Shown here piece by piece: positions 49,922-54,321 of a stretch of 64,000 nt of DNA; positions within the stretch are counted from its first letter, which is position 1; each line of letters begins with the position of its first letter. The notes under the pieces were generated by a model. That model was not told the origin of the DNA and made no database searches. It worked only from the letters and a program-made list of their open reading frames with translations. The stretch comes from Acidimicrobiia bacterium (GTDB lineage: Bacteria > Actinomycetota > Acidimicrobiia > Spongiisociales > ZC4RG35): the NCBI GenBank assembly GCA_965215185.1, contig OZ244034.1, positions 1,504,001 through 1,568,000 on the forward strand, given 5' to 3'. The translations under genes were made by a program, and so were the position numbers.

Positions 49922-50665
49922 ATGAACTTGTCCAGGACCCTCCGTTGCGGGCTGTCAATCGCCGGACTGACGGTGGTTTTCCTCTTCTTTGTCGCCGCTT
50001 GTGGAGGGGAATCCACCCCCGCTCCCGTGCCAGACGTTGATTTGGGCGAATTGCTTTCCAGTGCGGGAGAGAAAATGGCTGCCATGTCGACGGCGAAATT
50101 CAGCATGATCGACGAAAAGGAATCGGGAGCCAAGTTCTTTGGGACAACTTTCAAGAGCATGGAAACAGAAGTAGAGGCTCCCGACAGCTTCAGGATGGTG
50201 GTGGACGTGGAGGCGCCGGGTTTTGGATTTGTGGAGATCGAAATGTTGGCGGTCGGAGACCAGGCCTACATGAAGCTCTCCAAGGACGCGCCGTGGAACC
50301 CCTTGCCCTTGGACCAAGTGCCTTTCAATTTCGCGGGGTTGGGCTTCACCTTGCGCGATCTGCTTACCACGATCAAGGACGGCGCCACCATTACTGGCCG
50401 GGAGTCCGTGCTGGACACCCAGACCATTCGGGTTGAGGCGAACCTTGTTTCTGACCAGTTGTCATCCCTCCTCTCGACCGTGGATTCGGGTCACGCGGTG
50501 GCCTTGACCTTGTGGATTGACGAAACCGAACACGCTTTGCGGCAGATAAAGATCGCGGGCCGCATCTACGACGACGACGCCCCGGAAACCATCCGTATTC
50601 TAACCATTGTTGGTATTGACGTTCCTGTCGACATCCAACTTCCGGATGTCGGATCCGGGTCGTGA
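49922..50665 (+). CDS. LppX/LprAFG-family lipoprotein
   Basis: Lipobox VAAC, LWIDE, C-terminal PVDIQLP; overlaps the MFS start. Confidence 0.75.
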   Translation: MNLSRTLRCGLSIAGLTVVFLFFVAACGGESTPAPVPDVDLGELLSSAGEKMAAMSTAKFSMIDEKESGAKFFGTTFKSMETEVEAPDSFRMVVDVEAPGFGFVEIEMLAVGDQAYMKLSKDAPWNPLPLDQVPFNFAGLGFTLRDLLTTIKDGATITGRESVLDTQTIRVEANLVSDQLSSLLSTVDSGHAVALTLWIDETEHALRQIKIAGRIYDDDAPETIRILTIVGIDVPVDIQLPDVGSGS

Positions 50666-52137
50666 GCGGCGTTAGGAATCGTCTCGCCTCCCTGGGTTCT
50701 TCCGAGTCGGTTGTATTAGGAATTCTTTGCCTGGGAGTATTCTCGACCGCCTTGGATCAGACCGTGGTAGTCGCCGCGTTGCCTGGCGTAATGGTGGATT
50801 TGGAGATCCCCCTCACGGACCTGGACAGGGCGTCTTGGATCGTAACCGGGTATCTGGTGGCCTATACCGTGGCCATGCCATTGGGCGGGCGCCTGTCCGA
50901 TGTCCACGGCCGGGTCAAGATGTTCCAAGTGGCCTTGGTCGTGTTCTCCGTCGGATCGGCGTTCGTGGCGCTGGCGCCGAATTTCGGTTGGATTGTTTCC
51001 GCCAGGGTGGTCCAAGCTATTGGGGGAGGCGCCACGGTCCCCATCGGTCTGGCCATGGCAGTGGCAGCCGTATCGTCGCAGAGAAGGGGAATTGCCATAG
51101 GACTGGTGGCGGCGGCTGCTGAAGCCGGGTCCGTCTTGGGCCCTCTTTATGGAGGCGCCATTATCGAGTTGCTCGGCTGGCGGTGGATATTCTGGCTGGA
51201 CATACCCCAGAGCCTCATTCTTATCGCGCTTCTGGCCATCTTGCCGAACCGCGCCAATCCGAAGGCCAAGATGGACTACTTGGGGGCGTTGGTGATGGGA
51301 GGGGCACTCATCTTTCTAACCGCGGGGCTGTCCCAGAGGGGCCTCTTCTCCGCAACTTCTGTTTTCCCGTATCTGCTGGTGGCCGTGGGAGCACTTCTGG
51401 TCGCCGCATTGGTCGTCCTTGAACGACGCACGGATCAGCCTCTGTTGGCCCCTTTCCTGTACAGGTCCAGGGCGTTCCTGTCCTCCAACTGCACCCAGTT
51501 CCTGGTGGGTGTGGCCTTGATCATTGCTTTGGTATCCGTGCCCCTCATGGCAGGCACCGTCATGGAGAGGACGGGATTGGAGAGTGTCCTCTACTTGCTT
51601 CGCCTTACCGTCGCCATTCCGGTGGGGGCGGTGGTGGGAGGCTACATCCTTCGCTGGGCTGGAGTGCGATCGGTGTGTGTTACGGGCCTGGTGTTGATGG
51701 GAACGGGCCTGTTGTTCATGAGTGGTTGGGAGACGCAGGTGGAGGAACTGAGGCTGACCTTGCCCTTGGTATCGGCGGGTCTGGGATTCGGGCTGGTCAT
51801 CCCTCCTATTGGCGTCAGTGCTCTGAGCGCTTCGCCTAGTAATTATTGGGGCGCGGCGGCCTCTTTGGTCACAGCCTCGCGAATGGTGGGGATGGCGTTG
51901 GGGCTGGCCGCCTTGTCCGCTTGGGGCATAGAGCGCTTCTACAGCCTGACTGGCGACTTCGAGCTTGGACCGTCGTTCGAAGAGACCGAGGCAGTGTTGA
52001 TAGGCGCCGGCGTCACCGTGTTTCAGAACCTCTTCATGATCACGGGGGTTCTTTCCCTATTGGCCATCCTGCCGGCCCTGCTGATAAGAGAAGAACATGT
52101 CGAAGAAGACACATTTACCAACGAAGAGAGCCAGTAA
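50662..52137 (+). CDS. DHA2-type (about 14 TM) MFS transporter, P55/Rv1410c-like
   Basis: ALDQTVVVAALP, WIVTGYL, GRLSDVHGR, ARVVQAIGGG, GPLYG, WRWIFW. Confidence 0.9.
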   Translation: MSGVRNRLASLGSSESVVLGILCLGVFSTALDQTVVVAALPGVMVDLEIPLTDLDRASWIVTGYLVAYTVAMPLGGRLSDVHGRVKMFQVALVVFSVGSAFVALAPNFGWIVSARVVQAIGGGATVPIGLAMAVAAVSSQRRGIAIGLVAAAAEAGSVLGPLYGGAIIELLGWRWIFWLDIPQSLILIALLAILPNRANPKAKMDYLGALVMGGALIFLTAGLSQRGLFSATSVFPYLLVAVGALLVAALVVLERRTDQPLLAPFLYRSRAFLSSNCTQFLVGVALIIALVSVPLMAGTVMERTGLESVLYLLRLTVAIPVGAVVGGYILRWAGVRSVCVTGLVLMGTGLLFMSGWETQVEELRLTLPLVSAGLGFGLVIPPIGVSALSASPSNYWGAAASLVTASRMVGMALGLAALSAWGIERFYSLTGDFELGPSFEETEAVLIGAGVTVFQNLFMITGVLSLLAILPALLIREEHVEEDTFTNEESQ

Positions 52138-52180
52138 TCGAAGGGACTTATATACCTAGGTTGACAACCAGCCACCCCTT

Positions 52181-53533
52181 TTGTCGCAGGGGTGGGATAT
52201 TTTTAGGATCGTGGTTCCTTGGGTGCAGACGATCCGGCTGAAAGGGCATTGTTCCCGCTCGGCGCACCGTCGTTTGGATGACATCTTCGCGCAGTGTTGC
52301 GAGTTGTATAACGCATGCCTGGAATCATGGAAGGGCACATACCGGTGGTGGAAAGAACACCATCCCGACGAACCCCTTCCCCTAGAACTGAATCAGTCTC
52401 ACTATGACCGTCTGCGGATGTTCACCGATGTACGCAAGGACCATCCTGAGTGGCAGCGTTTGAGCCTTCGAGTGGGGCGCGGAACGTTGCGCCGCTTCGA
52501 CCGGTCTATTCAGGCCTTTTATAAGAGATGTAAGGACCCTTCCAAGAAGGCGGGGTTTCCCCGGTTCAAGCCGCGTCACCGGTGGAAGTCGATAGAGATT
52601 GTGAACGCTGACCGCGGGATGCTCAAAGCTCCGGGAGAGAGAAAGAACCACAGCGAGAAGTGGTGGAGACTACAGGTGAAGGGCGTGCCGTAGATACGGT
52701 TTGAGGACAAACACGACCGCCTCACTACCGCGTTGGAGAGCGGCCGGCTGGTGGAACTGCGAGTGGCCCGCACTCCTCTGCGAGTCGAGATACATGCGGT
52801 CATCAAGCACCCTGACCGCCCACCGGTGGCAGATCCGGTCAATCCCGTCGGTTTGGACAAGGGGCTCAAGTCACGCCTGGTCACTTCCGACGGCGAACAC
52901 CTACCACCCACAACCGTGGATCTGCGACAGGTGTTGCGCGCTCAGCGCCGGTTCAGCAGGTCCGTCAAGGGATCACGGTCTCGCATCAAGAAGCGCAACC
53001 ATCTCGCTAAACAGCACCGCCGCCTACAGGAACAGGCCATCCAGTCGGACTTCCGCCTGGCCGACCGCCTGGTCAAGGCCTACGACGGCATAGCTGCCGA
53101 AAAGCTCAATATCGCCCGACTGCTGAAAACCAAGCTGTTCTCCAAACAGATGTCACAGCAACGCTGGGGATCCTTCGATCTCATACTGGAACACAAAGCC
53201 GCGAAAGCTGGTATCCGGTATGCGGGAGTAAACCCCAGCCACACCTCCACCGACTGTTCCCGATGCGGGCATCACCAAAAGATGCCCCTCAACGTGAGAA
53301 CCTTCCGGTGCGAACAGTGTGGACTGACCATGTGCAGAGACCACAATGCTGCAATCAACGTATGCGCCCGAGGCTATCCCACCTGGGATCCTTGGGGTCG
53401 GGTGGGACATGACCTCGTGTTTCCCGACGCGGTGCGCTCTACAAATCTCTGTTGTAAGACATCTTTCGGCTCAGGCCGGAAGATGCTGGCAGACACCGCA
53501 GAACAGTATCACCTAGACGCTCCGTCAACCTAG
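52181..53533 (+). pseudogene. tnpB: TnpB RNA-guided endonuclease, interrupted by one in-frame TAG (52691-52693)
   Basis: ELYNACLE, GFPRFK, RuvC-I VGLDKG, RuvC-II AAEKL, zinc finger CSRC/CEQC, RuvC-III RDHNAAIN; both track ORFs are in one frame; true start may be GTG 52211 or 52223. Confidence 0.9.
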
Positions 53534-53546
53534 GTATATAAGTCCC
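53390..53546 (+). ncRNA. Predicted TnpB omegaRNA scaffold overlapping the tnpB 3' end and right TIR
   Basis: Stems GTCGGG/CCCGAC, GCGGTG/CACCGC, CATCTTTCGGC/GCCGGAAGATG, ACCTAG/CTAGGT; position typical of TnpB reRNAs; boundaries inferred. Confidence 0.6.
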
Positions 53547-53676
53547 TAATCGAAACTGGTCTGTAACGGCGCCCAAGCATACGAAGAAACCTCGTCAATA
53601 GCGGTGTACTGCCACGCCGCACCCTTCCCACCACGGAGGCTTCCCCACTCCCGCCCTCTCCCCTATTCCGACAATA

Positions 53677-54321
53677 TCAAGGAGCGAGCCGTTCCACCAC
53701 CCAGCCACCGTCCAGCAACCGATACTCGAAGCGATCATGGAACCGGTTCGGCCTGCCCTGCCAGAACTCGTAGCAATCCGTCACCATGCGATAGCCGCCC
53801 CACCCGGTAGGGCGAGGAACATCCCCGTCGGGATACTGTCGCCATAGTTCTGCCATCCGTTCCTCCAGCCAGGCCCGGTCGGGCACCGCCTGGCTTTGTG
53901 GAGAGACAACCGCACTCAAACGTGAGCCGGGGGGACGGGACCGGAAATACGCGTCGGACTGCTCGCTGGAGATCTTCTCCACCCGGCCCCCCACCCGCAC
54001 CTGTCGATGAAGCGGCAGCCACAAGAAGACCCCGGCCGCACGAGGGTTCTCGGCCAGTTCCGAACCCTTGCGGCTTTGGTAGTTGGTGTAGAAAACGATC
54101 CCCTGCCGATTGGTTTCCCTCATCAACACCGTCCGCGCCGAGGGTCCGGCATCCCGGCCGGCGGTGGCCAGGATGAAGGCGTGGGGCTCCTGCAATCCCG
54201 CTTCCAACGCCTCTGAGAACCAGCGGGCGAACAACTCGGACGGATCAGCGGGCAGATCAGACCGGGACAGCCCTGCGCTCTCATAGTCGGTGCGAAGGGT
54301 GCGGAGGCGCTCTTGGTCCAT
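53677..54321 (-). CDS. pdxH: Pyridoxamine 5'-phosphate oxidase
   Basis: FYTNYQSRKG, RQVRVGG, YFRSRP, EFWQGRPNRFHDR, C-terminal RLAP. Confidence 0.96.
   Translation of the reverse strand: MDQERLRTLRTDYESAGLSRSDLPADPSELFARWFSEALEAGLQEPHAFILATAGRDAGPSARTVLMRETNRQGIVFYTNYQSRKGSELAENPRAAGVFLWLPLHRQVRVGGRVEKISSEQSDAYFRSRPPGSRLSAVVSPQSQAVPDRAWLEERMAELWRQYPDGDVPRPTGWGGYRMVTDCYEFWQGRPNRFHDRFEYRLLDGGWVVERLAP

Follow-up and report, generated by a model that had tools for sequence, protein, structure and literature searches.

The 64,000-nt stretch of genomic DNA from an Acidimicrobiia bacterium analyzed here (contig OZ244034.1, positions 1,504,001 to 1,568,000; hereafter the window) contains an IS1595-type transposon that carries a tnpB gene and no transposase. 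In TnpB, from which Cas12 is descended, it is ordinarily the end of an IS200/IS605 element that defines the guide RNA. We propose that positions 53367–53546, which extend from the 3′ part of tnpB to the end of the element, are probably the scaffold of a TnpB omegaRNA (or right-end element RNA, reRNA) fitted into the right end of this IS1595-family transposon, with a guide derived from the flanking DNA. Judged by covariation among relatives, which settles the matter, the right-end structure is more than chance, and at the level of sequence comparison the interpretation of this structure as an omegaRNA is well supported.

Right-end structure and its covariation

Beyond the RuvC-III codons, the 3′ end of tnpB and the right terminal inverted repeat (TIR) of the element can be folded into a succession of helices (table 1). 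The 188-nt stretch folds at -66 kcal/mol, compared with -55.1 ± 4.1 kcal/mol for shuffled sequences (z -2.66; 1 of 200 shuffles as good), a difference that is weak when taken alone. When 35 non-redundant right ends are aligned with MAFFT, without fitting to a model, RNAalifold predicts stems 1 and 2, and four of the stem-2 pairs have both bases altered in 10–13 sequences. A covariance model built from 16 sequences with a hand-set structure (163 positions, 37 pairs) and searched against 88 sources (538,761 bases) returned 57 matches, 50 of them distinct, all of which lie at tnpB 3′ ends of the TIR-bearing clade and end at the TIR tip; the window is matched at 53377–53546, one match belongs to a TnpB-like gene of 633 amino acids (aa) with the same kind of TIRs, and the model finds no match in relatives of ~30% identity that lack TIRs. 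In the fitted alignment of the 57 matches, 88.6% of 1718 cells are paired versus 73.6% after shuffling (reached by 0 of 500 shuffles), and partners slid by 1–3 columns pair in only 30–44%; compensatory cells number 264 versus 79.7 in shuffled alignments and 31 of the 37 pairs are changed on both sides, counts that come from a model-fitted alignment of related sequences. An earlier reading of this DNA from its letters alone (the original prediction) had described an omegaRNA-like scaffold that overlaps the 3′ end of tnpB and runs into the right TIR; the covarying helices bear out that description, the stems, the 11-bp hairpin and the terminal TAG codon all lie where it had placed them, and the covariance that it had named as a check across copies is present.

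The individual helices contribute to this signal throughout the scaffold (table 1), and hairpin 3, as read off the alignment, is formed by different sequences in every subfamily. The most conserved part is single-stranded: the motif AGAACAGTATC, the columns of which are invariant or nearly so, is read in all three frames (RRTVS, AEQY, or QNSI, depending on the subfamily), and the stop codon of tnpB lies anywhere from 105 nt before the element end to inside the TIR in other copies. Because the motif is read in three frames and the stop positions vary, the constraint is on nucleic acid and not on protein. The TAG that ends the window frame (53531–53533) falls inside the right TIR, and on this comparison the long open tail of the window copy is incidental.

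The last hairpin of the scaffold is the point at which the RNA structure and the transposon end coincide: the inner 16 nt of the right TIR make up its 3′ strand, and subterminal sequence its 5′ strand. The outer helix is paired in 80.0% of cells (6 of 9 pairs compensatory) and the inner helix in 84.7% (4 of 4), the hairpin is present in the minimum-free-energy fold of the window right end, and in 23 of 28 elements the right end folds more stably than its shuffled versions. The two strands co-vary across the clade (GUACGCC with GGCGUAU, GUAUGCC with GGUAUAU, CCUGAGU with ACUCAGG), and CCAC pairs with GUGG where the inner end of the TIR differs. The ACCTAG/CTAGGT stem (53511–53516 with 53530–53535) forms part of this hairpin; it was initially rejected on the grounds that lineage L026 lacks it, a rejection reversed by the wider alignment and the model.

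These observations bear directly on a second possibility raised in the original prediction, namely a scaffold that stops near GTCAA (53528), with the TIR serving as a guide directed against elements that share it. The stretch between AGAACAGTATC and the TIR does vary in sequence and length by subfamily, as a guide would; however, this stretch is the 5′ strand of the terminal hairpin and changes together with the TIR, and the inner TIR is base-paired within a covarying hairpin, of which it supplies the 3′ strand (helices 5 and 6 of the model), whereas guides are unpaired. A guide of this kind would also match the element’s own ends and would leave the one-sided flanking G described below unexplained; the fit is poor, and we consider this possibility highly improbable.

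The seven TIR nucleotides that remain free after the terminal hairpin are complementary to the loop of stem 1, which lies 139–143 nt upstream of the first flanking base, and a pseudoknot between this GGGAC loop and the TIR tip is plausible. The mean loop–tail helix is 4.68 bp versus 4.29 bp with permuted tails (reached in 0 of 500 permutations), and the two strands switch jointly between clades from GGGA/UCCC to GGGG/CCCC, one lineage having GGGGCC/GGCCCC. In the TnpB reRNA of ISXfa1, positions -130 and -3 are joined by a functional pseudoknot according to passages of PMC10711439, and the candidate here would similarly join an upstream loop to a guide-proximal strand.

Table 1. Positions in the window of the tnpB element, its flanks, and its right-end structure
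Feature	Position	Strand	Remarks
G just 5′ of left TSD	52134	+	candidate last or only TAM base
Left TSD copy TAATCGAA	52135–52142	+	8 bp
IS1595-type element lacking transposase	52143–53546	+	1404 bp
Left TIR	52143–52165	+	23 bp, perfect match to right TIR
Left-end hairpin CCACCCC...GGGGTGG with T-rich tail	52172–52195	+	terminator-like, upstream of tnpB start
tnpB frame	52181–53533	+	single long frame of the element; RuvC D/E/D and zinc finger present
Stem 0	53367–53396	+	hairpin right after RuvC-III codons; 94.3% of cells paired; 6 of 6 pairs changed on both sides
Stem 1, GTCGGG/CCCGAC	53397–53402/53423–53428	+	89.7% paired; 5 of 7 pairs changed on both sides
Stem-1 loop motif GGGAC	53404–53408	+	conserved
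Stem 2, GCGGTG/CACCGC	53429–53434/53494–53499	+	long-range; 97.2% paired; 5 of 6 pairs compensatory
Stem 2b	53448–53452/53489–53493	+	inside stem 2; 88.0% paired; 5 of 5 compensatory
Hairpin 3	53460–53470/53475–53485	+	inside stem 2; 11 bp including one G-U, loop TCAG
Motif AGAACAGTATC	53500–53510	+	single-stranded; most conserved
Terminal hairpin GUAU(C)ACCUAG...CUAGGUAUAU	53506–53539	+	with inner GACG/CGUC helix; helices 5 and 6 of the model
Right TIR	53524–53546	+	23 bp, perfect inverted copy of left TIR
Unpaired TIR tip AAGUCCC	53540–53546	+	complementary to stem-1 loop GGGAC; candidate pseudoknot strand adjoining the guide
Right TSD copy TAATCGAA	53547–53554	+	8 bp
Predicted guide	53547–53566	+	right TSD copy plus ~12 nt of host flank
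TSD, target-site duplication; TAM, target-adjacent motif.

Flanking bases and the predicted guide

To place the guide, we compared the flanks of the 33 model matches (of 57) that have a paired left TIR and a target-site duplication (TSD) matching at 7 or more of 8 positions, the other 24 having no detectable partner or TSD in the locus examined. In 31 of these 33 independent insertions, G directly precedes the left TSD (the exceptions being one A and one T), and this holds clade-wide, to ~35% protein identity, including the proteobacterial copies and the lineage that encodes the 633-aa protein. After the right TSD, no base is preferred (A 12, C 9, G 8, T 4; n = 33), and positions -2 to -15 show mild skews at most, such as G in 11–13 of 33 at -2 to -4. 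The TSD itself is AT-rich, with A or T in 31 of 33 at position 1 and A in 24 of 33 at each of positions 2 and 7, and its sequence differs in all 33 insertions. Since the 8 bp vary in this way, the TSD cannot be part of the scaffold.

A guide that starts at the TSD is hence the most plausible arrangement, as the original prediction had it, and the G at -1 is a candidate target-adjacent motif (TAM)-like signal, placed exactly where a TSD-initial guide needs one. The predicted guide (table 1) is positioned by the end of the scaffold, the variability of the TSD, and this G. The element’s own right junction has C at the corresponding position, the TIR ending in C. Of the longer candidate TAM that had been suggested, GCCAG, the last G is retained, whereas the other bases find no support in the alignment of insertions. 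An empty allele matching the predicted guide had also been anticipated, and a joint from 52134 to 53547 with 8 shared bases is seen in one contig each of two of four metagenome runs (X1 and X3), the short side of the joint being only 22 nt and the runs possibly including the source sample; in X2 and X4, contigs extend out of the TIR into flanking sequence.

An alternative that we regard as unlikely retains the same scaffold and has the guide begin after the TSD, as described for Fanzor1; the RNA would carry the TSD outside its guide, the flank past the TSD would be the target, and the AT-rich TSD would contain the TAM. Passages of PMC10711439 describe Fanzor1 reRNAs that extend ~15 nt past the TSD, with TIR and TSD predicted to belong to the scaffold, and the preference for A at TSD positions 2 and 7 leaves room for an A-rich TAM at the TSD 3′ end. 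However, a TSD that differs in every insertion leaves no scope for a conserved pairing in the scaffold, the sole strong positional signal sits 5′ of the TSD and not within or after it, and, with a TAM in the TSD, the element’s own right junction would carry both TAM and target and would be cut.

Besides the dependence of the covariation counts on a model-fitted alignment of related sequences, several observations weigh against the omegaRNA interpretation. No sigma-70-like promoter was found in 52050–53750, an in-frame TAG (52691–52693) interrupts the tnpB frame of the window, and the two closest copies in the genome are damaged as well. Of the four runs that a single search listed for this sequence, none is on record as RNA. 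An Rfam search (E ≤ 10) gave two matches, with E values of 4.4 and 6.4, both far under the gathering threshold and outside the region. Covariation in the candidate pseudoknot is weak; several proteobacterial copies can pair only GGG with CCC there, and the enlarged stem-1 loop of some lineages could bury the loop motif. TnpB TAMs are usually 4–5 nt long, and one conserved base falls far short of this length and may instead result from the target preference of the transposase, an alternative that could be checked on only six transposase-bearing elements: of 21 IS1595 loci, the six with a clear TIR and TSD have flanks of A/T in four cases, A/G in one, and G/A in one, too few to decide. Finally, ~16 of 28 elements have a mirrored hairpin at the left end as well, formed by the inner TIR and an inverted subterminal copy, so the function of the TIR hairpin may lie in the transposon end and not in the RNA; the right TIR has 74 mismatches to the consensus versus 84 for the left (16 nt, 28 elements), which is not decisive, and element by element the left is worse in 13, the right in 8, and the two are equal in 7. 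A proposal that the right TIR is more constrained than the left was dropped on these counts.

Some of these points favor a different account, in which the right-end structure is a feature of the transposon end or of the mRNA and not a guide RNA (binding sites for a transposase acting in trans, a fold that stabilizes or terminates the transcript, or insulation from outside transcription) and the flanking G is the target choice of the transposase. The left-end hairpins, the terminator-like hairpin at the left end of the window element, and a right TIR that is no more constrained than the left all suit it. However, four covarying helices lie upstream of the TIR in the 3′ end of tnpB, where the relatives of TnpB keep their omegaRNA, and two transposase-bearing IS1595 elements with the same TIRs have no such TIR hairpins. 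The two TIR tips are nearly identical, so there is no obvious way for the transposase to impose a one-sided G, and two deletion derivatives (L106 and L097) keep the whole right-end structure despite the loss of tnpB. We therefore think it quite unlikely that the structure is of this kind and continue to favor an omegaRNA. The related claim of the original prediction, that pairing between scaffold and TIR reflects co-adaptation, is upheld insofar as the pairing is conserved (10 of 13 terminal-helix pairs changed on both sides) and, as just noted, absent from the two transposase-bearing elements, and is tempered by the mirrored left-end hairpins and by a right TIR that is not clearly better conserved.

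In all of four IS1595-type elements with other TIRs (L170, L175, L176, and L177), A precedes and T follows the 8-bp TSD; these flanks are symmetric, unlike the one-sided G of the tnpB elements.

The carrier transposon, its tnpB gene, and its relatives

With perfect 23-bp TIRs and an 8-bp TSD, the element is not a member of the IS200/IS605 or IS607 groups, and no DDE open reading frame (ORF) is present within it. TSDs of 8 bp occur throughout the tnpB clade. Elements of the IS1595 family, as defined in ISfinder, generate 8-bp repeats and have ends of the form GGnnaTTAT. The IS1595 transposase domain (PF12762, DDE_Tnp_IS1595) has matches in 8 of 17 genomes of the genus, among them a 2746-bp element (L158:740-3485, G009:C36) with the TIR GGGAATTACATACTTGGGTAGACG, the TSD ATAACTAA, and a 326-aa PF12762 transposase, and a 2924-bp element (L159) with the TSD TTACGTTT, both of them transposase-bearing IS1595 elements of sister species. 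The near-identical TIRs and 8-bp TSDs of these two elements identify the carrier, on sequence comparison, as a non-autonomous IS1595-family derivative. It shares 8-bp TSDs and the form of the TIR tips with the ISNwi1-like group of the family; unlike its transposase-bearing relatives, the window element carries tnpB and the predicted RNA and no transposase. Beside its transposase, the 2746-bp element has a passenger ORF of 499 aa with, by eye, a DPPF-type DNA methyltransferase-like motif and an HNH-like C-terminus.

The genome of the window contains 22 TIR-like ends (up to 5 mismatches) and one partial PF12762 match (29.8 bits), a relic that comprises a 96-aa open piece of the DDE domain (G000:C1:2082791-2083010, L144) and adjoins a TIR-like end, GGGACCTATATAC; the tnpB elements of this genome are thus probably without a resident transposase. 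An IS256-type partner was considered and rejected, the PF00872 copies of the genome having unrelated ends (GTCTGTGTGAGG). A 3.5-kb unit elsewhere in the same genome (G000:C1:952908-956420; L056:308-3820) has a TIR of the right-end type at each end, the two being inverted relative to each other, and a perfect 8-bp TSD, ACAGAAAA; it contains three ORFs (640, 170, and 253 aa) together with the remnant of a tnpB-deleted element. The three ORFs match no Pfam family above the cut-off (one weak LRV_2 match lies below it), and without a Pfam transposase domain among them the unit was rejected as an autonomous partner; because both ends are of the right-end type, it is a composite and not a source of transposase, and looks like a composite transposon moved by the same ends.

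The part of the window tnpB that follows the internal stop matches PF07282 (Cas12f1-like_TNB, 1.9e-21) and PF01385 (OrfB_IS605, 1.9e-08), both of which pass the cut-offs, and the 170 residues that precede the TAG have no Pfam match. The product would hence be an OrfB_IS605/Cas12f-like RuvC nuclease, like the TnpB proteins of IS200/IS605 and IS607 elements such as ISDra2 and ISXfa1. The catalytic residues D230, E311, and D391 are invariant across nine relatives, and the window frame has the matching motifs LDKG, AAEKLN, and RDHNAA. As its sequence stands, the window gene is a pseudogene unless the TAG is read through. Two intact tnpB frames are present in the same genome (G000:1844366-1845769 and 1952618-1954063), the first of them in a 1433-bp element (G000:C1:1844345-1845777).

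Within the genome, two copies are close to that of the window (98% and 92% identity) and several are at ~65%. A search with an intact 468-aa copy places the family in 7 of 41 related genomes including G000, the genome of the window; with that genome excluded, it occurs in 6 of the 16 remaining genomes of the genus and in none of 24 outside it. A scan of species-representative genomes gave 245 relatives, the closest of which belong to metagenome-assembled genomes (MAGs) titled Acidimicrobiia and Candidatus Spongiisociaceae. Relatives at 35–38% identity occur in Paracoccaceae, Boseongicola, Silicimonas, Gammaproteobacteria, and Dehalococcoidia MAGs; most of those examined have TIRs of the GGG(G/A)nTTATATAC type, several with matching 8-bp flanks. 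No TIR was found in relatives of ~30% identity, such as that of Ktedonobacter. The TIR-less relatives (Blastocatellia, Ktedonobacter) were considered as a guide to the ancestral scaffold end and set aside as uninformative, their right ends being unrelated in sequence.

Two further kinds of element use the same ends. The first, a 1902-bp element (L141:1001-2902, G007:C17) with the same TIRs, the TSD TAAAGCAA, and G at -1, scores weakly against the RNA model (25 bits) and contains the 633-aa TnpB-like ORF, the C-terminus of which has a zinc finger and a RuvC-III-like motif; by its sequence, this is a second, larger nuclease lineage on the same transposon ends. The second consists of deletion derivatives without tnpB. 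L106 (563 bp, 146.5 bits), L097 (727 bp, 103.1 bits), and L056:3576-3820 keep both ends as well as the full right-end structure, and all three are possible guide-RNA-only satellites.

In the window, the element lies between two convergent ORFs (50662–52137 and 53677–54321) that were formerly separated by a gap of roughly 130 bp. The stop codon of the upstream ORF (491 aa) is formed by the first three bases of the left TSD; because the TSD re-creates this TAA, neither flanking gene is disrupted. The left-end hairpin upstream of tnpB (table 1) resembles an intrinsic terminator that would block read-through from the upstream ORF into tnpB.

Proposed mechanism and comparison with known systems

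We hypothesize that the RNA transcribed from the right end would comprise, from 5′ to 3′, the post-RuvC-III hairpin, the GGGAC-loop hairpin, and a long-range helix enclosing two further helices, followed by the invariant AGAACAGUAUC and by a terminal hairpin that takes the inner half of the TIR as its 3′ strand. The last seven nucleotides of the TIR, AAGUCCC, would stay free and probably pair with the GGGAC loop as a guide-proximal pseudoknot, and transcripts that continue past the end of the element would gain their guide, TAATCGAAACTGGTCTGTAA, from the TSD copy and the host flank. Given a TAM that ends in G 5′ of the TSD, TnpB would be able to cut an empty or precisely excised site (G, one TSD, and the right flank), and the element’s own right junction would be spared by the C at the TAM position. 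Cutting of the empty site would favor retention of the element, as has been shown for IS200/IS605 TnpB, and an IS1595-type DDE enzyme supplied in trans would move the transposase-less element. Owing to the premature TAG in tnpB, the RNA of the window could act only with TnpB from another copy, such as either of the two intact frames noted above.

A more speculative extension, which we consider very doubtful, is that the one-sided G is more than a passive TAM that happens to suit the transposase and that TnpB and its omegaRNA take part in where, or in which orientation, an IS1595 element becomes established, either through selective survival of those insertions that create a cleavable empty allele or through binding of TnpB to G and TSD at the left junction by way of an 8-nt TSD “seed.” If true, this would add an RNA-guided layer to a bacterial cut-and-paste transposon, with an unusually short, single-base TAM.

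The predicted RNA resembles those of ISDra2 and ISXfa1 in being a structured RNA that extends over the 3′ end of the gene to the right end of the transposon and takes its guide from the flank. TIRs and TSDs are both absent from IS200/IS605 and IS607 elements, as stated in part of a 2026 review (PMC13565253), whereas the carrier here has both, and in a TIR-bearing carrier the scaffold must run through the TIR. Unlike in IS200/IS605 TnpB systems, the first eight bases of the predicted guide are a copy of the TSD and the TAM-like signal is a single G.

A closer parallel is provided by the DDE-associated TnpB branches DDE-1 to DDE-6 (Altae-Tran et al. 2023), for which passages of PMC10691335 describe a TnpB between the inverted repeats of DDE transposons, a tnpB 3′ end <250 bp from the element end, and solo tnpB copies whose ends resemble those of elements with a transposase. 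The elements described here are similar in having tnpB between inverted repeats, its 3′ end near the terminus, and solo copies. The carrier families named in the parts of these two papers that we cite are IS630 (PMC10691335) and ISL2, IS630, and IS1031 (PMC13565253); the term IS1595 is absent from the main texts of both, and their supplements may list it. The passages of PMC10691335 on these branches do not describe scaffold structure, pseudoknot, or TAM, unlike the analysis here. A literature search that combined IS1595 with TnpB gave, judged by titles and abstracts, nothing on such an association, and one that combined IS1595 with ISNwi1 gave unrelated papers only. What is added here is the IS1595 carrier, a covarying scaffold that folds in the inner TIR, the candidate pseudoknot of the TIR tip, and the one-sided G.

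The eukaryotic Fanzor systems are similar in another respect: like the reRNAs of Fanzor1 and Fanzor2*, as far as these are described in passages of PMC10711439, the predicted RNA includes the TIR in its scaffold and leaves a non-autonomous cut-and-paste element. Unlike in Fanzor, the element is prokaryotic, its TnpB is small, and its TSD is variable and most likely the 5′ end of the guide, not scaffold.

The finding thus extends published ideas and introduces no new principle. On the interpretation favored here, the clade shows the RNA of TnpB rebuilt in a TIR-bearing, TSD-making DDE transposon, where the inner TIR has become a scaffold hairpin, the TIR tip may provide the guide-proximal pseudoknot, and the variable TSD supplies the first eight bases of the guide. 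With intact members, many independent insertions, and a sharp flank signal, the clade would be a convenient bacterial counterpart to Fanzor, in which the benefit that an RNA-guided nuclease may bring to a cut-and-paste transposon, and the existence of a very short TAM, are open to study.

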